Source: a virus
Length of the DNA stretch: 64,000 bases
Reading direction: 5' to 3' (one strand)
Virus record (IMG/VR): IMGVR_UViG_3300012964_000002
Coordinates: 25,427 to 89,426 of that record
The notes under the pieces were generated by a model. That model made no database searches, was not told the origin of the DNA, and was given only the letters and a program-made list of their open reading frames with translations. Positions 2,365-45,130 of this stretch are shown here, one piece after another; the stretch's first letter is position 1; every line of letters starts with the position of its first letter. Both the position numbers and the translations under genes were made by a program.

Positions 2365-3408
2365 GTGGCCGGTCGTTCCGCTGGCGCGAAGGCGTTGAAG
2401 GACATCGCCGCCGCGATCAACAAGGCGTTCGGGAAGGGCGCCGCCCAGGTGCTCGGGGACGACGCGGAGGTCCGCGGCGAGGTGACGGACGTCATCCCTC
2501 TCGGCATCGGCGTTCTCGACAACTACGTGATCGGCGTGGGCGGGTTGCCCTGCGGGCGCGTCGTGGAGGTCTACTCGGAGGAGGGCGGGGGCAAGACGTC
2601 GCTGCTGCTCGCCGCGCTCGCCGGCGCGCAGCGGGAGGGCGGGCTCGCCGCGCTGGAGGAGACCGAGAACGCGCTCCAGACCGACCGCCTCGTCGTCTTC
2701 GGCGTGGACAAGGAGCAGCTCCTCGTGGCCCAGCCGGACTCGATGGAGGAGGTGCTTCAGGAGATGCAGCTCATCCTCGAGCACGCGCCGAAGGGCGGCG
2801 GGCCGATCCTGATCGGCTGGGACTCCGTGGCGGCCACGCCGACCGCGGCCGAGGTCGAGGGCGGGATCGCTCCCGACAAGGGGATGGACGTCCGCGCGAA
2901 GATCCTCTCCGCGGCGTTCCGCCAGCTCGTGCCGCTCGCCGCGGAGAAGCGGGCGTGCATCCTCGTCGTGAACCAGACGCGCGAGAAGATCGGCGTCATG
3001 TTCGGAGACAAGACGACGACGCCGGGCGGGAAGGCCATCAAGTTCGCGGCGAGCGTCCGCCTCCAGATCCTAGGCGGCAAGGCGGTGAAGCGCGGCGAGG
3101 GGCACGTCGGCAAGGACGTGACCATCATCGCGTCGAAGAACAAGCTCGCCCCGCCGTGGCGGAAGGCGCGCGTCCGGCTCTCCTACGACTCCGGCTGGGA
3201 CGACGAGTGGTCGACGCTCGAGTTCGCCAAGGACTTGCAGATCATCGAGCAGGACGCGAGGGGGGAGCAGGCGCTCGCGGAGGCGCGCGAGAAGCTCGCC
3301 GCGTGCGGCTGGAGCCCCTCGCGCGTGACGCAGGAGATGCTCGTCGACCCGTCCGCGTCGCGGAAAAAGAAGGACGACGAGGGCAAGAACACGGGACAGG
3401 AGGATTGA
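2365..3408 (+). CDS. recA: RecA/UvsX recombinase
   Basis: GGLPCGRVVEVYSEEGGGKT (Walker A), DSVAA, NQTREKIGVMFG, TTPGGKAIKFAASVRL. Confidence 0.95.
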   Translation: MAGRSAGAKALKDIAAAINKAFGKGAAQVLGDDAEVRGEVTDVIPLGIGVLDNYVIGVGGLPCGRVVEVYSEEGGGKTSLLLAALAGAQREGGLAALEETENALQTDRLVVFGVDKEQLLVAQPDSMEEVLQEMQLILEHAPKGGGPILIGWDSVAATPTAAEVEGGIAPDKGMDVRAKILSAAFRQLVPLAAEKRACILVVNQTREKIGVMFGDKTTTPGGKAIKFAASVRLQILGGKAVKRGEGHVGKDVTIIASKNKLAPPWRKARVRLSYDSGWDDEWSTLEFAKDLQIIEQDARGEQALAEAREKLAACGWSPSRVTQEMLVDPSASRKKKDDEGKNTGQED

Positions 3409-3409
3409 C

Positions 3410-4282
3410 ATGGCGGCGAACGGACCTGGTTGGAAGATCGAGTGGGTGAAGTTCACGAAGGCCGACGCGCAGCAGGCGTTGGCGAAGTTCAAGGAAGATC
3501 GCGGCGTCGACGCGGCATGGGTTGACGCGCTCTCTCGCACGATGGACGCCGGGCTGTGGGAGGTCTACAGCCCGTCGCAGACGCCGATCGCGTTCGACCG
3601 TGGCGGCAACAGGCTGAACGGCAAGCACCGCCTCCTCGCGTTCATCAAGTCGAAGCTCGACGAGATCATCTTCCCCGTCGTTCGCAACCTCGACCCGGAC
3701 GAGTTCCGCAACTTCGACCAGAACGTGAAGCTGCGGAAGCATACCAACGCCCACCCTGGGCACATCAACCTTTTCCGCGACGAGGCGCGCGTCGGCTGGC
3801 TCGAGGTGATCGTTTCGGCGGACAAGAGCGTCAAGATGACCACTCAGCTGTTCGACCACCTGTGCGGTGGGAAGTGGAAGCGTCAGGTCAGGTGGGCCAC
3901 GGACAAGCTTCAGTCCCAGTCCAGGCAGGGCAAGGCTCCCTACGCCGCGGCCTTCATGTACGTTCATCGGCTGGATCCGGTGTTCGCTGACAAGGTCGTC
4001 GAGATGTGGCGCGACGGTCCGGACGGGAGCAAGCATCCGCACCTTCGTCGGATCCGCGACCGCGCGATGTCCGTGACGAAGAACGGTCACGGGGGGCGCG
4101 GGGAGCGCGAGGTGGACATGCTTCGTCTTCTTGGTGTGCTCGCGTACATGCATCAGGACAGGCCGCTTCCTAACAGGCTGTCGAACATTCTGGTCGGGAT
4201 CCGCTACTTCTCCGAGAAGCTGCGGGACGGGGCTGCCGCCCGCTGGGAAAAGCGGACGATTGTCGGGGCGGATGAGGTGTGA
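3410..4282 (+). CDS. ParB/DGQHR-like N-terminal domain protein
   Basis: IAFDRGGNRLNGKHRLLA resembles the ParB-like DGQHRL motif; lower-GC codon usage. Confidence 0.55.
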   Translation: MAANGPGWKIEWVKFTKADAQQALAKFKEDRGVDAAWVDALSRTMDAGLWEVYSPSQTPIAFDRGGNRLNGKHRLLAFIKSKLDEIIFPVVRNLDPDEFRNFDQNVKLRKHTNAHPGHINLFRDEARVGWLEVIVSADKSVKMTTQLFDHLCGGKWKRQVRWATDKLQSQSRQGKAPYAAAFMYVHRLDPVFADKVVEMWRDGPDGSKHPHLRRIRDRAMSVTKNGHGGRGEREVDMLRLLGVLAYMHQDRPLPNRLSNILVGIRYFSEKLRDGAAARWEKRTIVGADEV

Positions 4283-5037
4283 TCGTGGACTCCGGGCTCA
4301 TCAGGATCGGGAACATCGAGGTTCATCCGGCGGCGCGCCTGTTTCCGGAGATGGGGGAGGATGACCTTCGCGAGCTGTACGAGAGCGTCAAGGTCAACGG
4401 TGTGCGGTCTCCCCTCCAATTCTTTGAGGGGAAGCTTCTCGACGGGCGAAACCGTGTCCGCGCGGCGCTCATGGCGGGTCTCGACGTCGCGAATCTGCCG
4501 CGTCGCAACCTCAGTCCTGACACGGATCCGTTTCAGTATGCGTGGGACGCGAACTGCGAGCGGCTCAACTACGCCCCGAAGACGAAGGCGGACATCGCCG
4601 TCAAGATCGCCGAGGCCTCCGGAGAGCTCGCGCGCCTGCGCGCCGGGGCGGCGGCGAGGGCGAACGCCTCCCGGTCGGAGAAGGCGAAGGCGCAGATCGC
4701 GGAGCAGCCGCGGGACGGCGCGGGGAAGGTGAGGCCGGGTGGAGCGCCACGTGACGCTCGACCCGGCCTGCCTCCCCCGCCGCGGAAGATCGCCAAGGAG
4801 ATCGCGGAGAAGGCGGGCGTGAGCACGCGGACGGCGGAGCGCGCGCTGCGGCGGCGGAGGGAGGGCCCGGAGGCCCTCGACGGCGTCGCCGACGGGCCCC
4901 CCGCGCGCACCAAGCGGCGCCCCTCGAAGTGGAGCGTCCCGCGCGACGTCGGCGACATGGCGAAGTTTCTGCGCGAGCGGCTCACGCTGGCTGAGATCAC
5001 GCGGCTCGTCAAGCTCCTGACGGAGAGCAAGTTATGA
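4279..5037 (+). CDS. ParB-like N-terminal domain plus C-terminal HTH
   Basis: HPAARLFPEM...LLDGRNRVRA; IAEKAGVSTRTAERA HTH. Confidence 0.7.
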   Translation: MIVDSGLIRIGNIEVHPAARLFPEMGEDDLRELYESVKVNGVRSPLQFFEGKLLDGRNRVRAALMAGLDVANLPRRNLSPDTDPFQYAWDANCERLNYAPKTKADIAVKIAEASGELARLRAGAAARANASRSEKAKAQIAEQPRDGAGKVRPGGAPRDARPGLPPPPRKIAKEIAEKAGVSTRTAERALRRRREGPEALDGVADGPPARTKRRPSKWSVPRDVGDMAKFLRERLTLAEITRLVKLLTESKL

Positions 5038-6158
5038 GAGTGGGTCTGATCGCTGACGTACACCTCGGGAACCACCGCCGGTTCGGCGGCCCGCTCGAGG
5101 CCGGCCTGAACCGCAGGTGCCGGCAGGCGGTGGCGGCGCTCCGGAACGCCGCGGAGGAGGCGGGCCGCCAGAAGTGCGACGCGCTCGTGGTCGCCGGCGA
5201 CCTCTTCGACTCGGCGCGTCCGGAGCCGCAGGTGATCGCCGCCGCGATGCGAGCGCTCCGCGCCGGCCCGCCCGCTCTCGTCCTCAAGGGCAACCACGAC
5301 AGCGTCAGCGACGCGCCCGGGGACAACGCGCTCGGCCCGCTGACGCAGGGGATGTTCGACGTCTTTGAGCGGCCGGCGCGCGTTCCGGGAGCGGGCGTGG
5401 ACCTCCTCCTCGTGCCCTTCCGCGCGGGGGACGCGCGGGAGTGGCTGCCGTCCGCGGTCGACGAGGCGCTGGGGAAGATCAAGGTGCCGAGGCGGCGCGT
5501 CGAGCTGGCCCTGTTCGTCCACCTCGGGATCGCTGACGACGACACGCCGGAGTGGCTGCGCGGCTCCCGCGACTCCGTGGACGTCTCGACGCTGGAGAAG
5601 TTGTGCGCGGAACGCGGGATCTCCTTCGTCGGCGCCGGCAACTGGCACAACCCCGAGAGCTGGCAGATGGACGGGGGTGGTCAGATCGTGCAGGTCGGCG
5701 CGCTCTGCCCCACCGGGTTCGACAACGAGGGGCTCGACTGCGGGAGCCTGGCGGTCTGGGACTCCGAGACGGGGGAGGTCGCGCGGCACGAGATCCCCGG
5801 GCCGCGCTTTCTTCGTCTGAACGTTGGCTGGGCGAGCGCAGAGGCCGCGCGCCTGGCGACCAAGGCGGGGCACGGAGTCTACGCGGAGATCGTGCACTCT
5901 CCGGACCTCGCCGCCGAGGCGGCAACGCGCCTGCGGACGCTGATCGACGAGGGTTCGCTGATCGACGGCGAGCTCCGTCCGGACGGCGACGTGGCGGAGG
6001 CGGCCGCGCGGAGCGCCGCGGCCGCCGTGCGCGGGGCGGACACGCTCGACGCCGCGCTCGCCGGCTACGTGGGCGAGATGCAGCTCGAGGACGGCGTCGT
6101 GCGGACCGCCGTCTTGGAGCGCGCCAAGAAGTACCTGGCCGCCGCGGAGGAGCGATGA
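5034..6158 (+). CDS. Mre11/SbcD-like metallophosphoesterase nuclease
   Basis: ADVHLG, AGDLFD, GNHD, GNWH motifs; upstream of Rad50-like ATPase. Confidence 0.9.
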   Translation: MRVGLIADVHLGNHRRFGGPLEAGLNRRCRQAVAALRNAAEEAGRQKCDALVVAGDLFDSARPEPQVIAAAMRALRAGPPALVLKGNHDSVSDAPGDNALGPLTQGMFDVFERPARVPGAGVDLLLVPFRAGDAREWLPSAVDEALGKIKVPRRRVELALFVHLGIADDDTPEWLRGSRDSVDVSTLEKLCAERGISFVGAGNWHNPESWQMDGGGQIVQVGALCPTGFDNEGLDCGSLAVWDSETGEVARHEIPGPRFLRLNVGWASAEAARLATKAGHGVYAEIVHSPDLAAEAATRLRTLIDEGSLIDGELRPDGDVAEAAARSAAAAVRGADTLDAALAGYVGEMQLEDGVVRTAVLERAKKYLAAAEER

Positions 6159-38967: not shown

Positions 38968-39447
38968 ATGCCCGTCACCGCCACGAAGAACGACACGCTC
39001 CAGCAGGCGCTCGACCGCGCCTCGCCGGACCAGCTCGCCGACGCCCTCCGCAGGATCGCCCTGGCCAAGGTGCTCGACCCGGTGAAGGTGACGTTCGTCG
39101 GCCTCGCGTCCGCGGCCGCGCAGAACATCACCACGGCCGCCGCGCGCGCCGCCGCGACCATCAACCAGGGCCTCAAGAGCCTGGGCGCGACCGACCTGCT
39201 CCCGGCCATCCTGGAGGTCGGCACGCTCCGCGTCACGGCGGGCACGCTCGCCGCTGGCCCCGCCATCGTGACGGACTCCGGCGGCACCCCGACCGCCATC
39301 GGCGCGGGCACCGCGCACGTCGCGACGCTCTCGGACGACGGGACGACGCTCACCTTCCAGGCCGCGGTCACCGCCTTCGTGCTCGAGTACGTCCCGAGGT
39401 CGAGCACCGACTTCGCGACGCTGTTCGCGCCGAACCCGAAGGCGTAG
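38968..39447 (+). CDS. Putative head decoration protein
   Basis: AAGGAG RBS; Ala/Thr rich; upstream of scaffold and capsid. Confidence 0.5.
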   Translation: MPVTATKNDTLQQALDRASPDQLADALRRIALAKVLDPVKVTFVGLASAAAQNITTAAARAAATINQGLKSLGATDLLPAILEVGTLRVTAGTLAAGPAIVTDSGGTPTAIGAGTAHVATLSDDGTTLTFQAAVTAFVLEYVPRSSTDFATLFAPNPKA

Positions 39448-39559
39448 GCAGTTCCACGTAGCCGGGGGCGGAGACCTCGCCCCCGGCGAATCGAAAGTGC
39501 ATCCTCGTCGTGCACGCGCACGGCGGCGGTGAACAGCCGGGAAACCGGACGAGGCGCAC

Positions 39560-40447
39560 ATGACTCCCGAGGAGCAGAAGACGCAGGCGGAGGCCGAGGC
39601 CAAGAAGGCGGCCGAGGCGAAGGCGGCGGCGGAGAAGGCGGAGGCCGCGAAGGCGGCCGCGGCCGGCGCGACCCCGAACAGCGACGGGACGGTGACCCTG
39701 GCGGACGGCAAGGTCCAGGTGCTCTCCCCCGGCGCCTACAAGCGCATCAAGGAGGACGCGGCGAAGCGCGGCGCGGCCCGCGAGCGCGCGGCGCTCGAGG
39801 AGCAGGCCAAGGCGGCGGGCTTCGCCTCCCTCGATGACGCTCTCCGGCAGCTCCGCGACGGGCACCGGCGGGAGCCCCGCCGCGAGGAGCGGCCGGCCGG
39901 CGCGGCGGCGAGCGCTCGTCCCAACGGCGAGCAGCCCCCGACGCCGCCGGAGCGCCCGACGCACGGCGCCGGGCGGAAGGCGTGGGAGCGCTACGAGCGC
40001 GCGCGGAAGCAGTTCGATCACGATGTCCAGGCGTACCGGGAGCGCACGAACCGCGCGACCGCCCGCGCCCGCGACCTCGAGAAGCGGCTGGAGGCGCAGG
40101 AGGCGGAGCAGGCCCTGCGCGAGAAGGCGATCATGTCGGGCGTCACCGACGTCGACTACGCCATCGCGCTCCTCAAGCGCGACCTCTCCGGGAAGACGGA
40201 GGAGGAGCTCGGCAAGTTCGACGAGGCCAAGTGGTTCGAGGCGCTGCGCGCCTCCAAGCCGTACCTGTTCGGCGTGAAGGAGGTTCCCGCGAACACGGGC
40301 ACCGCCGGCACGACGCCGGCCCCCGCCACGCCGGGGCAGATCGCCGCCGCGGCCGCGCGAGACGGGCAGTTCGACGGGCGGAAGGTGTCGAAGCAGGAGT
40401 TCAACGACAGGCTGCAGAAGATGGGCATCAGCTCGCCGACGGTGTAG
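39560..40447 (+). CDS. Capsid scaffolding protein
   Basis: Charged coiled coil with KPYLF near the C-terminus; directly before MCP. Confidence 0.75.
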   Translation: MTPEEQKTQAEAEAKKAAEAKAAAEKAEAAKAAAAGATPNSDGTVTLADGKVQVLSPGAYKRIKEDAAKRGAARERAALEEQAKAAGFASLDDALRQLRDGHRREPRREERPAGAAASARPNGEQPPTPPERPTHGAGRKAWERYERARKQFDHDVQAYRERTNRATARARDLEKRLEAQEAEQALREKAIMSGVTDVDYAIALLKRDLSGKTEEELGKFDEAKWFEALRASKPYLFGVKEVPANTGTAGTTPAPATPGQIAAAAARDGQFDGRKVSKQEFNDRLQKMGISSPTV

Positions 40448-40503
40448 CCGGCGCGCGGCGTCGCTCGCCTCCTTGCGGCCGAGGCAAGAAGCATCGAGGT
40501 TTG

Positions 40504-40533
40504 TTGACAGGTCAGAGCCGCAGGACGTAACCT
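40504..40533 (+). promoter_or_regulatory. Putative capsid-gene promoter
   Basis: TTGACA-N18-TAACCT. Confidence 0.65.
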
Positions 40534-40575
40534 CGCGCCAGCTCGATCAGGCGCCACCCAAGAAGGAGACGAGCG

Positions 40576-41967
40576 ATGCCGGACTTCTCTACCATCCTCC
40601 AGGCCCCGGAGATCCGGGCCATCGTCCAGGAGAACCTCCTCGAGCGCGCGTTCCACGACGCGCTGTTCCCCCGGCTCCTCTTCCGCGGAGAGGCGACGCC
40701 GCAGGTCTGGCCGGCCAGCGTCGGCGACACGATGGTCTTCTCGGGCGTGGGGCTCATCAAGCCGAAGATGGCCGCCCTCCCGCCCGGCGTCGACCCCCTG
40801 CCCTCGTCCTACCAGAGCGAGCAGTGGACCGCGCAGCTCCAGCAGTACGCGGACACGATCGACACGCACATGCCGACGAGCATCGTGGCGATCGCCAACC
40901 TGTTCCTCCGGAACGCGCACCAGCTCGGCCTCTCCGCCGGGCAGGCGCTGAACCGCGTCGTGCGCGACCGCCTCTACAACATCGGCGCGAGCGGCAACAC
41001 CGTCACGACCGCGGCGGCCGTCGCGCCGACCAACCTGGTTCCGGTGGCCCGTCTCGGCGGGTTCACCCGCGCGCGCAACCCGCTGCTCGCCGGCGGCTCG
41101 CCGGTGCGCTTCGACGCCGTCTCCGCCGCGAACCCGCTCGCCGCGACCGTCGGAGGCGTGGCCGTCTCCATCGTCGGCTTCGCGGCCGCGACGCCCGGCG
41201 ACGAGGTCGGTCCCGGCACGCTCACGCTCGCCGCGAACATCGCCGCGTTCGCGCTCCGCGCCGCGGTCGTGGCGACCGACGCCAGCGTGATCCAGCGGGT
41301 CGGGGGCGGCACCACCATCGACGCGCTCGTGGCGGCGAACATCCTCACGCTCGCCGACATGCGCTCCGCCGTGGCCCGCTTCCGCCAGCAGAACGTCCCC
41401 GAGCAGCCGGACGGACAGTTCCACTGCCACCTCAGCCCCCGGGCCGAGGGCGAGCTGTTCGCCGACAACGAGTTCCAGCGGCTGCTCACTGCCCTGCCCG
41501 ACTACTACATGTACAAGCAGTTCGCGATCGGGCAGCTCCTCGGCATCGCGTTCTTCCGGAACAGCGAGGCGCCCATCGCCCAGACCGTGTCGGGCGGCGC
41601 GACGGCGAGCTACGACCCGGCGGACCCGCTCGGCCTCGAGCTGTTCGTCGGCGGCACGACCGCCGGGCTCGCCGTGGAGCACTCGCTCCTCGTGGGCCAG
41701 GGCGCGATCTACGAGTACCACCAGGACCTCTCGCAGCTCATCACCGAGGCCGGCGTGACCGGCCGCGTGGGCGAGCCCCGGATCACGAACAACGGCATCG
41801 AGGTCTTCACGGACCGGATCCAGCTCATCATCCGCTCGCCGCTGAACCGGCTCCAGGATCTCGTCGCGACGTCCTGGCGGTTCATCGGCGACTGGCCGGC
41901 CCGCACGGACGCCACCGTCGGCGACGCCGCCCGCTACAAGCGCGTGGTCGTCATCGAGCACGCGTAG
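40576..41967 (+). CDS. Major capsid protein
   Basis: 463 aa after scaffold; VGDTMVF, LGLSAGQALNRVVRD long helix; strongest codon bias. Confidence 0.85.
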   Translation: MPDFSTILQAPEIRAIVQENLLERAFHDALFPRLLFRGEATPQVWPASVGDTMVFSGVGLIKPKMAALPPGVDPLPSSYQSEQWTAQLQQYADTIDTHMPTSIVAIANLFLRNAHQLGLSAGQALNRVVRDRLYNIGASGNTVTTAAAVAPTNLVPVARLGGFTRARNPLLAGGSPVRFDAVSAANPLAATVGGVAVSIVGFAAATPGDEVGPGTLTLAANIAAFALRAAVVATDASVIQRVGGGTTIDALVAANILTLADMRSAVARFRQQNVPEQPDGQFHCHLSPRAEGELFADNEFQRLLTALPDYYMYKQFAIGQLLGIAFFRNSEAPIAQTVSGGATASYDPADPLGLELFVGGTTAGLAVEHSLLVGQGAIYEYHQDLSQLITEAGVTGRVGEPRITNNGIEVFTDRIQLIIRSPLNRLQDLVATSWRFIGDWPARTDATVGDAARYKRVVVIEHA

Positions 41968-42489
41968 GAGCGCGCACCCGGTGGGGGACCTCCTCCACAC
42001 CTCGGGGCGGTCGGTCGGCGAGGCCGGCCGCCCCATCACTTTGCCCGCCTCGCGCGGGCATCGCGCCGACCTCGCGTCGGCACCAGGGATGTGCGCTCGA
42101 CAGAGCGTCACCAGCCAGGCTGACACCGAGGCTGGACATCCCGCCGGCTCTTGCGACTCTCCCGAGTCGCGTGTCAGGGAGCCGCGTCATGCACGGGCCT
42201 CGTGCCCGTCGAACGGCACCAGCGCAAACCCCGGCTTCGCGCCGCGGAACCGCGCCTGCCGAAACAATGGTGGCCCCGCCTTTCGGCGCTTCGGCGCCAA
42301 CCCCGGCGGAGACATCTCGGACGCTCCGAGCCTTCGTGCTCACCCCCCGCGTCCTCGTAGGGCTCGTCGCACCGTCATCGCGCTCACCCCACGGCGGGGG
42401 CTTCCGCCGGTCAACCGCGCGAAGATCGCGACGAGCCCTGCCACCGCTTTCTGAACCTCGAGAACCGAAGCCCAGGACGGAGACGGAAG
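41968..42489 (+). ncRNA. Candidate large structured non-coding RNA
   Basis: More than 10 nested helices, G-U pairs, a UUCG tetraloop and a 7-bp pseudoknot; no credible CDS. Confidence 0.6.
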
Positions 42490-42894
42490 ATGGCGGCCCC
42501 GGCGAGCAGCGGAAAGAAGCGCGGGTGGGACCCTGTGGCGGCCGCCGGCATCCCCGGCGAGCCTCTGGACGTGACCCCCTCGAAGCCGGAGGCGGATCCG
42601 GTGAACCCTTCCATCCACGACCCCACGCCCCCTCCTCCGCCCCCGAACCCGGAGAGCAGCGCGACCGTGGAGAGGCTGCAGCGCGCCATCGAGGCGGCGA
42701 AGCGCGAGCCCGCGCTCGTCCCCCCTCCGCCGACGCCCCCGCCCCCGGTCGGCCCGGCGTTCCGCGTCCGGGAGACCCGCGTCGTCAACCTGCGCGGAAG
42801 CCTCACGACGCTCGCGCGCGGCAGCATCGTGCGCGCGGTCTCGCACGACCTCGCCTCGATCCGGGAGCAGGGCGTGCCGCTCGACCCGGTGTAG
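42490..42894 (+). CDS. Pro-rich head-associated hypothetical protein
   Basis: Follows MCP; small globular C-terminal domain. Confidence 0.6.
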   Translation: MAAPASSGKKRGWDPVAAAGIPGEPLDVTPSKPEADPVNPSIHDPTPPPPPPNPESSATVERLQRAIEAAKREPALVPPPPTPPPPVGPAFRVRETRVVNLRGSLTTLARGSIVRAVSHDLASIREQGVPLDPV

Positions 42895-42930
42895 GATCGG
42901 CCGGGAGCTCGACGTGGACGGAGGACGCTG

Positions 42931-43338
42931 GTGGCGCTCAACGATTCTGAGAAGGAGCGGGTGAGGTATCACCTCGGCTACATCGAGGTGCAGCCCGCGG
43001 CGTCCATCCAGCTCGGCATCCCCCGCCCGATCCAGACCGTCTTCCTCGTCGAGCAGGCGATGAACAACGTCATCGGCGCCGCCGAGGACCGCGTCCGCCG
43101 CATCCTCGGCGTGATGGACGGCATCGAGGACCAGCTCGTCGACGCGCAGCCGCGTCTCGCCGCCGAGAAGCTGGACGAGCTCACCATCCGGAAGGACGAG
43201 ACGGACGCGCTCGACAGGGAGTACGTGCGATGGGGCTCGCGCCTCGCCGACATCCTGGGCGTGCCGATCTACCCGTACAGCGCGCGCTACCGCAACGTGA
43301 TGGGCAGCGGAGCGGGCTCCATCCCGGTGAGGGGGTAG
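42931..43338 (+). CDS. Head-tail adaptor-like protein
   Basis: MALNDSEKERVRYHLGY; position. Confidence 0.65.
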   Translation: MALNDSEKERVRYHLGYIEVQPAASIQLGIPRPIQTVFLVEQAMNNVIGAAEDRVRRILGVMDGIEDQLVDAQPRLAAEKLDELTIRKDETDALDREYVRWGSRLADILGVPIYPYSARYRNVMGSGAGSIPVRG

Positions 43339-43341
43339 CTC

Positions 43342-43884
43342 GTGCCCTTCCCGGTCCGCCCTCGCCGCTTCACCGACCTCTCCGGGCTCGACCTCTCGAG
43401 GACGCTGGCGCGCCGCCTCGTGCCCGTGGCCGACATGCTGCGCGATCTCCGCACGAAGTTCGGCATGCGGCCGTACGAGGTTCACGTCATCCGCTCCGCG
43501 TGGACGGGCGGAGAGCGCGGCGTGGGGGTCGAGCAGGTGACCTCGGACGTGGTCATCCTCCCGACGCCGCGCATCGTCGACCTGACCTCGCTCACGGAGA
43601 TCGTGCAGCCCGTCGGCCTGGACGAGGTCGGGCAGGTCACGCTCGACGAGGTCTCCGGAAGGTTCACCGAGGATCAGCTCCTCGGGAGGCACGACGACGG
43701 GTCGCCGCTCCGTCCCGACGAGACGGTGTTCTACGAGGTGCTGTTCCCGCTCCCGGACGGGCGCGCCGGCAACGTCGAGCGACGCCGATTCTACCCGACG
43801 AGCGCGCCGCACTACGCCGCCGGGAAGTTCGAGTGGGTGGTCCGCCTGGAGCGCCAGCGGCCCGACGCCGGGAGGGGCTTCTGA
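43342..43884 (+). CDS. Head closure / neck protein
   Basis: Position; beta-rich. Confidence 0.55.
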   Translation: MPFPVRPRRFTDLSGLDLSRTLARRLVPVADMLRDLRTKFGMRPYEVHVIRSAWTGGERGVGVEQVTSDVVILPTPRIVDLTSLTEIVQPVGLDEVGQVTLDEVSGRFTEDQLLGRHDDGSPLRPDETVFYEVLFPLPDGRAGNVERRRFYPTSAPHYAAGKFEWVVRLERQRPDAGRGF

Positions 43885-44402
43885 TGGAGCGCACGATCGT
43901 CATCGACGCGCGCGACTACGAGGCGTGGCTGCTCAAGCTGGCGCAGGAGAAGATCCCGGAGGCCATGGAGCGCGGCGCCGTCTCCGGTGCCGCTCGCTGC
44001 ATTCCGCTGCTCCACACGGCCACGGACACCGCCCCGCCGGCCAACCCCTCCGGGAAGGGCAGCGGCGGCGCCTTCAGCTCGGGGAAGTACAAGTCGATGT
44101 GGCGCTCCCGCCCGATCCGCGGCGGAGCTCAGGTCTTCAACGACGCGTCCTACGCCGCCGTGATCGAGGAGGGGCGCCGCCCGGGCGCGAAGGGGCCGCC
44201 GTTCACCCCCGACGTCATCGCGGGCTGGGCGCAGCGTCGCCTGGGGCTGTCGGCCAAGGAGGCCAAGAACGCCGCGTTCGCCATCCGACGCGCCATCAAG
44301 GTGCGCGGCCTTCGCGCCCGCAAGGTGCTCACGACCTCCATCCCGAAGATGACCGACGTCGTGCTCGAGGAGATCGTGCGCGAGCTGGAGCGTGCCTGGT
44401 GA
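43884..44402 (+). CDS. HK97 gp10-like neck/tail component
   Basis: YAAVIEEGRRPG...PP...I..W...AFAIRRAIKVRG. Confidence 0.7.
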   Translation: MERTIVIDARDYEAWLLKLAQEKIPEAMERGAVSGAARCIPLLHTATDTAPPANPSGKGSGGAFSSGKYKSMWRSRPIRGGAQVFNDASYAAVIEEGRRPGAKGPPFTPDVIAGWAQRRLGLSAKEAKNAAFAIRRAIKVRGLRARKVLTTSIPKMTDVVLEEIVRELERAW

Positions 44403-45130
44403 CGATGACGGATCCCCGCCTTCCGGACCCGCCTCCGCCGCTCCCGCCGCCCGGAGGAACGCGCCTCGTGACGGACTCCGGGACGGCCCCGACGCTCTCC
44501 CTGCGCCAGGACTCGGACGCGCGGACCGCCGTCTGCCGCGGACTCGCGGAGTACATCGAGCAGCTCGAGTGGACGATGCCGGGCGGGCGGCTCCTCCGCT
44601 TCGCCAAGGTCTTCGACACCTGGGCGGGCGCGGAGGATCAGGCCAAGTACCCCTCCGCCATCGTCGAGGCGGCGCCCGACGGCGAGTACGACGGGGCGCG
44701 CTTCACGCCGGCGGCGGACGACGCGGACGTCGAGGGGTCCTCCCTCGTGCAGACCTGCGAGCTCAAGACGGAGCTCAGGGTCGGGGTCTGGGCGACCGAC
44801 CGCAAGGAGCGCAGCGGCCTCGTCGCCATGCTGGAGGCGCGCCTCATCGCGCCCACGACGTGGATGTACGGGACGATGCTCGAGCTGCCCCACTACTTCG
44901 GCGTGCGCGCCTCGTACGAGCCGACCGGCGTCTCCTTCGACGACACCTCCGAGAGCGCGCTGCGCCGCTACCGCGTCGCGACGATGCGCGTGCGCGCCGC
45001 CATGCCGATGGTCGTGGTCGCCAAGATTCCGCGTCTCGCGGTCGGGCAGCCGAAGCTCGACCTTCGGGAGATCGGCGAGAGAACGGAGTTCGCGCCGACG
45101 GACATGGCGTTCTCGGCGGGGAGGATGTAG
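44399..45130 (+). CDS. Tail terminator-like protein
   Basis: KYPSAIV; position before sheath. Confidence 0.55.
   Translation: MTMTDPRLPDPPPPLPPPGGTRLVTDSGTAPTLSLRQDSDARTAVCRGLAEYIEQLEWTMPGGRLLRFAKVFDTWAGAEDQAKYPSAIVEAAPDGEYDGARFTPAADDADVEGSSLVQTCELKTELRVGVWATDRKERSGLVAMLEARLIAPTTWMYGTMLELPHYFGVRASYEPTGVSFDDTSESALRRYRVATMRVRAAMPMVVVAKIPRLAVGQPKLDLREIGERTEFAPTDMAFSAGRM

Follow-up and report, generated by a model that had tools for sequence, protein, structure and literature searches.

The major capsid protein gene of the virus recorded in IMG/VR as IMGVR_UViG_3300012964_000002 is followed directly by a large structured RNA, here called the post-capsid RNA. The window analyzed is a 64,000-nucleotide stretch of DNA corresponding to bases 25427-89426 of the 89,426-bp record, which carries direct terminal repeats, and its G+C content is approximately 72%. 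A first-pass annotation made from the letters alone had proposed that the gap behind the capsid gene holds a large, densely structured candidate non-coding RNA (ncRNA), and this proposal has been borne out: the signal lies on the plus strand, the fold is more stable than that of shuffled sequences, and the region is conserved and covarying. We are therefore highly confident that the post-capsid RNA is real, non-coding, and conserved. It is structured, is confined to one genomic position in one phage clade, and constitutes a new RNA family, the function of which we infer. The reading we favor, with roughly as much belief as doubt, is that the RNA would serve in cis as an attenuator or 3'-end module of the capsid mRNA, sharing a trans-acting factor with an element in the leader of the scaffold gene.

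Folding signal and coding potential

The gap under study runs for 522 nt from the capsid stop codon to the ATG at 42490. The structured RNA proper occupies 41968..42453 on the plus strand (approximately 486 nt), extending from the capsid stop codon to a U-rich tract behind a long-range helix, P1; all coordinates given below refer to this strand. The minimum free energy of 41968-42489 was -274.4 kcal/mol, against -239.1 ± 6.5 kcal/mol for 100 dinucleotide shuffles, so that the folding test proposed in the first-pass annotation gave a z-score of -5.43 with none of the 100 shuffles equaling the native sequence. For the minus strand the z-score was -2.78. The stronger score on the plus strand indicates a strand-specific signal, as expected of an RNA with G-U pairs. 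The Rfam scan that had likewise been proposed placed the region in no known family: the whole window had 0 matches in Rfam 15 at gathering scores, and 41900-42560, searched at E-values up to 10, gave only two unrelated chance matches. A blastn search of the gap against 50,697 deposited phage genomes returned no match. A group I intron was also considered and rejected, there being no Intron_gpI match at E-values up to 10; the capsid gene ends at its own stop codon and the next gene has its own ribosome site.

At 72% GC any sequence folds stably, as illustrated by the shuffled mean of -239 kcal/mol, and the fold might on that account be dismissed as the chance structure of a GC-rich spacer or as a DNA-level signal for packaging or replication. 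Against this stand the z-score of -5.4 relative to dinucleotide shuffles, the asymmetry between the strands (-5.4 vs. -2.8), the restriction of the motif to one syntenic site in dozens of contigs, and the occurrence of compensated pairs in relatives of only 55-57% GC; covariation already contradicts such a reading, to which we assign next to no probability. The same is true of a protein-coding role, whether for the 157-codon open reading frame (ORF) 41981-42454 or for an extension of the capsid protein by read-through or frameshifting. In the window and six relatives, an open frame of 136-163 codons does begin no more than approximately 100 nt from the capsid stop codon, and some of these frames share weak blastp similarity (L089 vs. 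L014, E 1e-19; related loci are designated L plus a number), which follows nucleotide homology. However, GC contents at the three codon positions of the ORF are 0.69, 0.70, and 0.77, against third-position values (GC3) of 0.93-0.98 in the flanking genes, and codon-position GC is similarly flat in the longest open frames of all 42 relatives. These frames differ in phase with respect to the capsid frame (frame 0 in 13, frame 1 in 18, and frame 2 in 11), indels between the window and L002 have lengths that are not multiples of three, and the substitutions are base-pair compensations. A tblastn search of 48 related loci with the ORF returned no match, Pfam and PHROG gave no family for it, and the capsid protein of relatives aligns through its last residue, that of the window terminating at its own stop codon. 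Conservation of this ORF as protein, which the first-pass annotation had named as one of three observations that would overturn its proposal, was thus not seen, and neither was any other coding signature; the other two, a folding energy no better than that of shuffles and a lack of covariation in homologs, did not occur either.

Architecture and covariation

Relatives were obtained by searching with the capsid protein, which gave 48 viral and 43 metagenome loci. With nhmmer, positions 99-519 of the gap align with L002 and L003 (E 5.6e-9), and iteration adds L087, L092, L089, L014, and L009. L002 is the closest full-length relative (capsid identity of 75%) and was aligned with the window using MAFFT. 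For these two sequences RNAalifold predicted 107 pairs, of which 38 are changed on both sides. A manual structure of 119 pairs in 18 helices combines helices added here with those named in the first-pass annotation, all of which are present at the coordinates it gave (its numbers for long-range pairings being the outer ends). In this structure 88.9% of cells are paired, compared with 35-43% when the partners are slid, and 33 of the 119 pairs are compensated between the window and L002, compared with 3-6 in the slid controls; none of 500 shuffles scored as high. Since the structure was derived from the window, only its L002 half constitutes a test, and there approximately 89 of 115 cells pair. 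Covariation among homologs, another of the checks that had been proposed, is abundant, being found in this comparison as well as in domain B, the pseudoknots, and P1, described below.

The 5' half opens with three hairpins placed by folding, H1 (42004-42034; 13 bp, with G-U pairs), H2 (42042-42060), and H3 (42065-42081), the columns of which are 64-78% paired against L002 in a poor part of the MAFFT alignment. The loops of H2 and H3 are identical (CUCGC). By eye, L002 has three hairpins at matching places, the last two (about 5465-5505) both with the loop CUUUGU; the loop is the same twice per genome and different between genomes, which suggests concerted change, for example of two sites for one dimeric partner. 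A junction domain and the hairpin following it occupy 42086..42184. The closing stem GGGAUGU/ACAUCCC (42086-42092/42136-42142) contains hairpins at 42093-42108 (GACA loop) and 42111-42135 and is followed by the hairpin at 42145-42184. Three pairs of the junction stem are compensated relative to L002, as are three in each of its two hairpins, and overall the helices of this region (numbers 4-9) are 92-100% paired, with 3+3+3+1+5 compensated pairs. The loop CUGACAC (42120-42126) pairs with GUGUCAG (42171-42177) to form a pseudoknot, PK1, of which L002 keeps six of seven pairs, one through an A-U to G-C compensation, and has one mismatch.

Hairpin D (42202..42219; GUGCC/GGCAC, predicted by folding) leads into the most conserved part of the RNA; by eye, relatives have at its place a hairpin with a YUCGGUC-type loop, 20-45 nt upstream of domain B. 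Domain B (42220..42258) consists of an outer stem (42222-42225/42252-42255), an invariant 4x4 internal loop formed by AAAC (42226-42229) and AACC (42248-42251), and a bulged hairpin (42230-42247). Across 35 distinct sequences 15 positions are invariant and 95.2% of cells are paired, against 35-40% with slid partners, and the covariation score, 0.555, compares with no more than 0.126, not one of 500 shuffles having equaled it. The pattern used for searching fixes six of the 12 pairs; the other six (columns 11-14 and 25-26) are free and carry the covariation, each being represented by three to six standard pair types.

The 3' domain as a whole is closed by P1, in which GGUGGC (42269..42274) pairs with GCCACC (42440-42445); the latter strand, a GC dinucleotide, and the U-rich tract UUUCU (42448-42452) make up 42440..42453. 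P1 is identical in L002, and across the family its strands change together (GGCAGC/GCUGCC, GAUGGC/GCCGUC, GGCGGC/GCCGCC, AGAUGA/UCAUCU, and GGAGGU/ACCUCC), the 5' strand being found 8-16 nt past domain B in at least 17 of the 35 distinct sequences. Matched strand pairs had a mean score of 17.5 and mismatched pairs 15.7 (Mann-Whitney p 0.006), a difference that is modest because GC-rich strands cross-pair. Within P1, variable middle hairpins (42276..42354) comprise 42276-42309, built around a cUUCGg hairpin at 42285-42298, and 42319-42354; they are partly compensated in L002 and absent in the minimal relative L014. They are followed by domain C (42357..42441), in which a 12-bp stem (42359-42370/42428-42439) and a 6-bp inner stem (42378-42383/42417-42422) enclose an H-type pseudoknot formed by CCCC (42387-42390) and GGGG (42397-42400), with a second stem, S2, at 42392-42396/42405-42409 and CUUC as loop 3. 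Relative to L002 the long stem has four compensated pairs and the inner stem five; in the inner stem, as in the 5' hairpins, MAFFT is out of register and these were not counted by column. The strands of the domain C pseudoknot occur in 12 complementary combinations in 21 sequences, including CGCG/CGCG, CCGC/GCGG, and the flipped CGGG/UCCG. When AC..GG-flanked hairpins were chosen without reference to the pseudoknot rule, 16 of 32 obeyed it, whereas 200 shuffles averaged 5.4 and never exceeded 11.

Genomic position, relatives, and the scaffold leader

Among relatives the RNA is approximately 385-600 nt long and always lies in the same intergenic place, 15-45 nt before the start of a gene of one family. 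In the window this gene (42490-42894) encodes a Pro-rich protein of 134 aa and is preceded by a Shine-Dalgarno-like GGAGA at 42479-42483. Relatives without the RNA have at this site a gap of 80-170 nt containing a GC hairpin of 9-17 bp, a U tract, a Shine-Dalgarno site, and the ATG. Across the 17 RNA-less intervals in which a start was called no more than 180 nt away, the gap is mostly occupied by one long GC hairpin, then a U-containing tail, a Shine-Dalgarno site, and the ATG, and a terminator scan located hairpins in L042 (1156-1177, 9 bp, tail TTTCTTTT) and L074 (4440-4475, 16 bp, tail TTTGTTTC) that fit the definition of an intrinsic terminator as a GC-rich stem with a run of U 0-2 nt behind it. 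In RNA-bearing relatives a U-rich tract (CUUUU up to U8) comes after the 3' strand of P1, ahead of the ribosome site; at least five T in eight positions, within 32 nt upstream of the ribosome site, are found in 14 of 30 distinct sequences and in 11% of background windows. Domains B and C lie inside or adjoin P1, ahead of the U tract and the Shine-Dalgarno site. The presence of a hairpin at the same spot in RNA-less relatives leads us to read the RNA as an elaborated version of a terminator/attenuator and 3'-end element that would be ancestral to the position. Within the post-capsid RNA no conserved alternative pairing was found, nor did any known aptamer model in Rfam match.

An exact IUPAC pattern of domain B was present in 51 viral contigs. 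In 48 of these the motif stands beside homologs of the capsid gene, g135, or g180 in the expected order, and in the remaining three the hairpin is missing. Among the at least 120 matches listed for 596 Gb of prokaryote genome contigs there was one real one, on a 39.7-kb contig of a Gemmatimonadaceae metagenome-assembled genome (MAG; L250, JBAZTM010000029.1). Its domain B is identical to that of the viral locus L097, and L250 may be a phage contig caught up in the binning, or may point to the host. Domain B is carried by 42 of 88 distinct capsid-to-g135 intervals, and when the other 46 were searched with a model, R1, one more divergent copy emerged (L010, E 0.0027) and the remaining 45 gave nothing. 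On a quick IQ-TREE tree of the capsid protein (71 rows), presence of domain B requires 10 changes by parsimony, at least four of which are forced by well-supported branches, indicating that the RNA is old and has been repeatedly lost or remodeled. Remodeling can be seen in L023, sister of L020 (capsid branches of 0.035 and 0.046), where the domain B hairpin has been exactly deleted and the rest is kept with compensations, so that L023 constitutes a natural deletion mutant, and in L089, L039, L040, and L004, which have a C-type pseudoknot without domain B. Insertions also occur between capsid gene and RNA: L135 has an HNH endonuclease ORF there (3864-4523; PF01844, E 3.2e-9), and at the same place L137 and L102 have a 786-nt insert with a CANCH-like motif by eye and no Pfam match in the frame tested.

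A second pseudoknot is located at 39506..39552, just before the Shine-Dalgarno site and the ATG (39560) of the scaffold protein gene (39560-40447; PF06810, E 1.1e-9). This scaffold-leader element was detected by nhmmer in 62 loci, in every case 937-1149 nt upstream of the capsid start, and is present in both RNA-bearing and RNA-less phages. In its stem S2 all 132 cells are paired and three of the four pairs are compensated, and its pseudoknot strands occur as CGC/GCG in 28 cases, as CGU/GCG in 3 (wobble intermediates), and as CGU/ACG in 2. A search of 39400-39620 against Rfam at permissive E-values gave nothing relevant. In PK1, in the domain C pseudoknot, and in the scaffold-leader element alike, bases of a hairpin loop pair with a strand outside the hairpin and both strands change together, as expected of H-type pseudoknots.

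Covariance models of domain C and of the scaffold-leader element find one another. The domain C model, R2, matches the scaffold leader in 10 loci (E 0.023-1); at 0.54 bits per position it has many chance matches at E 0.1-5, and only the two syntenic sites were used. The scaffold-leader model, R3, matches the window at 42377-42422 with 20.9 bits (E 0.012 in 430 kb), its best match there after the scaffold-leader site itself, and reaches E 1.5e-5 on the 522-nt gap alone; it also matches L012 (E 0.088) and L002 (E 0.19) in their post-capsid regions. By eye, the two are built to one plan: after an enclosing stem there follow the 5' strand of the pseudoknot, a short loop that ends in A, a 4-5 bp stem closed by C-G, the 3' strand of the pseudoknot, a loop that is often A-rich, the return strand plus G, and finally a GGU/A-N-A-A-type junction. 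The scaffold-leader element appears to be a paralog, far more widespread, of the inner pseudoknot of the post-capsid RNA. Given the marginal E-values and the small size of the models, common descent or a common ligand is offered as a reasoned hypothesis and not as a result. The 3' strand of the scaffold-leader stem (GCCGG) could instead pair with a CCGG downstream, beside the ribosome site (CCGG-GAAA-CCGG in the window), and such an alternative pairing could make a two-state switch. Just upstream of the scaffold leader in L035 and L047 (approximately 2997-3026), the sequence resembles the 3' half of a tRNA gene (GGTTCGAGTCCCGC).

The capsid gene itself (40576..41967; GC3 0.98) encodes 463 aa, and the RNA begins right behind its stop codon. 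The protein belongs to PHROG phrog_1357, major head protein (E 1e-13), is 31% identical to the annotated capsid of Streptomyces phage Kromp, and has seven distant matches in deposited phage genomes, all to annotated capsid genes at 26-31% identity. The 134-aa protein (GC3 of its gene, 0.93) belongs to a single family in 60 loci, with and without the post-capsid RNA, and has no Pfam or PHROG match. The position of its gene, between the capsid gene and the g135 homolog, recalls the lambda order E - FI - FII; an FI-like identity was considered and rejected, the top Atlas match, to a lambda FI-like cluster, scoring 0.79, which is chance level. Further downstream, a 401-codon ORF (43925-45130) has a GC3 of 0.80, against 0.93-0.98 in its neighbors, and its start or frame may be mis-called. 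ARAGORN identified 0 tRNA genes and no tmRNA-like element in the 64-kb window. A sequencing-run lookup matched the window DNA to five runs, and the DNA was found whole in three wetland metagenomes, from which it may originate.

Proposed function, alternatives, and significance

Predicted to be made within the late head transcript, the post-capsid RNA would form the untranslated 3' end of the capsid mRNA and at the same time serve as leader for the head gene that follows. In the model we favor it would be an elaborated form of the terminator or attenuator hairpin kept by RNA-less relatives. P1 is predicted to close the 3' domain ahead of the U-rich tract and the ribosome site of the next gene, so that folding of this domain would set the passage of polymerase or ribosomes from the abundant capsid message into the low-copy head-completion genes, and would also protect the 3' end of the capsid mRNA. 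Domain C and the scaffold leader are probably recognized by a single trans-acting factor, perhaps a head protein of the phage, a protein of the host, or a ligand, which would couple expression of scaffold, capsid, and downstream genes. Domain B, whose 15 invariant positions persist across capsids that are only 50-75% identical, probably offers a further point of contact for a conserved partner or a dock for tertiary interactions. A more specific version of the model, which we consider unlikely, has the 3' end of the capsid mRNA acting as a decoy of the scaffold pseudoknot operator, titrating a repressor of scaffold translation (possibly free scaffold or capsid protein) while gating transcription into the head-completion genes; domain B would then be the place where another strongly conserved partner docks, RNA polymerase or the ribosome for example.

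Several observations weigh against the attenuator model. A simple terminator scan of 40400-43400 in the window found 0 sites, and to that extent the statement in the first-pass annotation that there is no U-tract terminator stands; it holds just for this high-GC member, however, as UUUCU follows P1 after 2 nt and clear U runs are present in relatives. Even so, the U tract of the window is weak, P1 itself has 6-7 bp (5 G-C) and encloses approximately 165 nt, which is unusual for the stem of an intrinsic terminator, and just 14 of the 30 relatives have a strong U run. Approximately half of the clade is without domain B, indicating that the RNA is dispensable or replaceable, which would fit an accessory ncRNA equally well. 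The 5' half of the molecule (the three hairpins, junction domain, and PK1) has no role in the model beyond stability. The likeness between domain C and the scaffold leader depends on marginal E-values (0.012-1), low-information models, and reading by eye, and could reflect convergence of two compact H-type pseudoknots. Finally, the five sequencing runs matched to the window DNA include 0 RNA runs.

One rival explanation is a large ornate RNA, similar in kind to ROOL and GOLLD, that stands free and acts in trans; the capsid gene would lend it only a strong late promoter, and termination at P1 together with 5' processing would release it to serve, for instance, as a scaffold, a decoy, or an RNA-only assembly. 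The first-pass annotation had pointed to GOLLD, ROOL, and pRNA in this connection, and while its claim of a large structured RNA stands, the comparison among relatives points at least equally to a cis-acting element. A free-standing RNA would accord with the size of the molecule in relatives, its many UUCG-capped hairpins, at least two pseudoknots and a long-range helix, with the 15 domain B positions held invariant while capsids diverged to 50% identity, and with a patchy and dispensable distribution on the capsid tree (at least four and up to 10 changes) in which modules are gained or lost, as in the minimal form of L014 and the exact B-hairpin deletion of L023. The ROOL and GOLLD RNAs are similar in kind: they are carried by phages, are patchily distributed, measure several hundred nucleotides, and combine multistem junctions and several pseudoknots with a few invariant nucleotides; for ROOL in particular, a length of 581 nt, three pseudoknots, and frequent occurrence in prophages are given (PMC5737381). 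In contrast to these, which are often neighbors of tRNA genes in phages or prophages, the post-capsid RNA does not stand beside tRNA genes, is placed between the capsid gene and the gene of the 134-aa family, has a terminator-like 3' end, belongs to one capsid clade, and is matched by neither the ROOL nor the GOLLD covariance model even at E-values up to 10. It occurs at a single intergenic position 15-45 nt ahead of the start of the same gene, never elsewhere among the matches listed, has no recognizable promoter of its own in a scan limited to the sigma-70 consensus, and is replaced in RNA-less relatives by a simple cis element at the same spot. We consider a free-standing RNA doubtful. A humbler role as passive structure at the mRNA end, shielding it from 3' exonucleases or offering RNase III/E processing sites with no ligand, partner, or regulatory input, would suit the location at the 3' end of the most abundant late message, the many very stable hairpins, and the fact that relatives manage with a single strong one. 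A barrier, however, would need neither 15 invariant unpaired or internal-loop nucleotides nor two covarying pseudoknots and an inner motif common to the scaffold leader, and we regard this explanation as quite unlikely.

The attenuator model finds its closest precedents among intrinsic terminators and pseudoknot operators. The T7 T-phi terminator after gene 10 is the textbook intrinsic terminator behind a major capsid gene. The post-capsid RNA has the same place in the operon, and its RNA-less relatives carry a classical GC hairpin and U tract there; it differs in that a long-range helix surrounds approximately 165 nt of conserved pseudoknotted structure, with a further 300 nt of conserved RNA upstream. 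The T4 gene 32 leader, the rpsO/S15 operator, and the preQ1-I and SAM-II riboswitches are built on compact H-type pseudoknots whose third loop is A-rich, and the scaffolding protein of P22 is subject to post-transcriptional autoregulation. Domain C and the scaffold leader are likewise compact and H-type; their loop 1 is short and ends in A, their loop 3 is often A-rich, and their pseudoknots are set inside a stem abutting the ribosome site. However, no Rfam riboswitch or leader model matches either of them, and the domain C pseudoknot lies 60-110 nt from the ribosome site within a much larger fold.

With respect to position, Rfam includes the Mu-gpT-DE motif, a small conserved RNA structure directly downstream of Mu-type capsid genes. 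It differs in its small size, and no Rfam model reaches threshold in the post-capsid region, nor is there a relevant match at E-values up to 10. Mu-gpT-DE was not found in the main text of PMC5737381. A catalog of IMG/VR intergenic regions, drawn from the same data source and concerned with the same kind of object, contains 8,495 csRNAs, including terminator-containing and gene-proximal motifs; the text names candidates upstream of a capsid family and not this post-capsid RNA, which may nevertheless be present in the catalog, whole or in part, as an unnamed entry (PMC10690425). No such RNA is described in the available portions of PMC10690425, PMC5737381, or 10.64898/2026.09.22.753630, and the motif tables of the first two may bear on novelty.

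Large, intricately folded RNAs of bacteria and phages are rare, and most of those known perform sophisticated chemistry or regulation. The post-capsid RNA offers a fixed and interpretable position, with the most highly expressed late gene on one side and low-copy head genes on the other; natural controls in the form of sisters with a plain hairpin, an exact domain deletion (L023), and a minimal form (L014); and a second, more widespread pseudoknot at the scaffold gene. Together these make the post-transcriptional setting of scaffold, capsid, and head-completion ratios testable with defined RNA elements. Should the RNA prove to be only an ornament of a terminator, it would still be a useful Rfam-type family with at least 40 distinct members, of value in annotating the genomes of uncultured phages and in avoiding false ORF calls. 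If, on the other hand, the capsid mRNA does act as a decoy of the scaffold operator, the RNA would represent an RNA-based stoichiometry controller of capsid assembly and a new class of large cis/trans-acting phage RNA.

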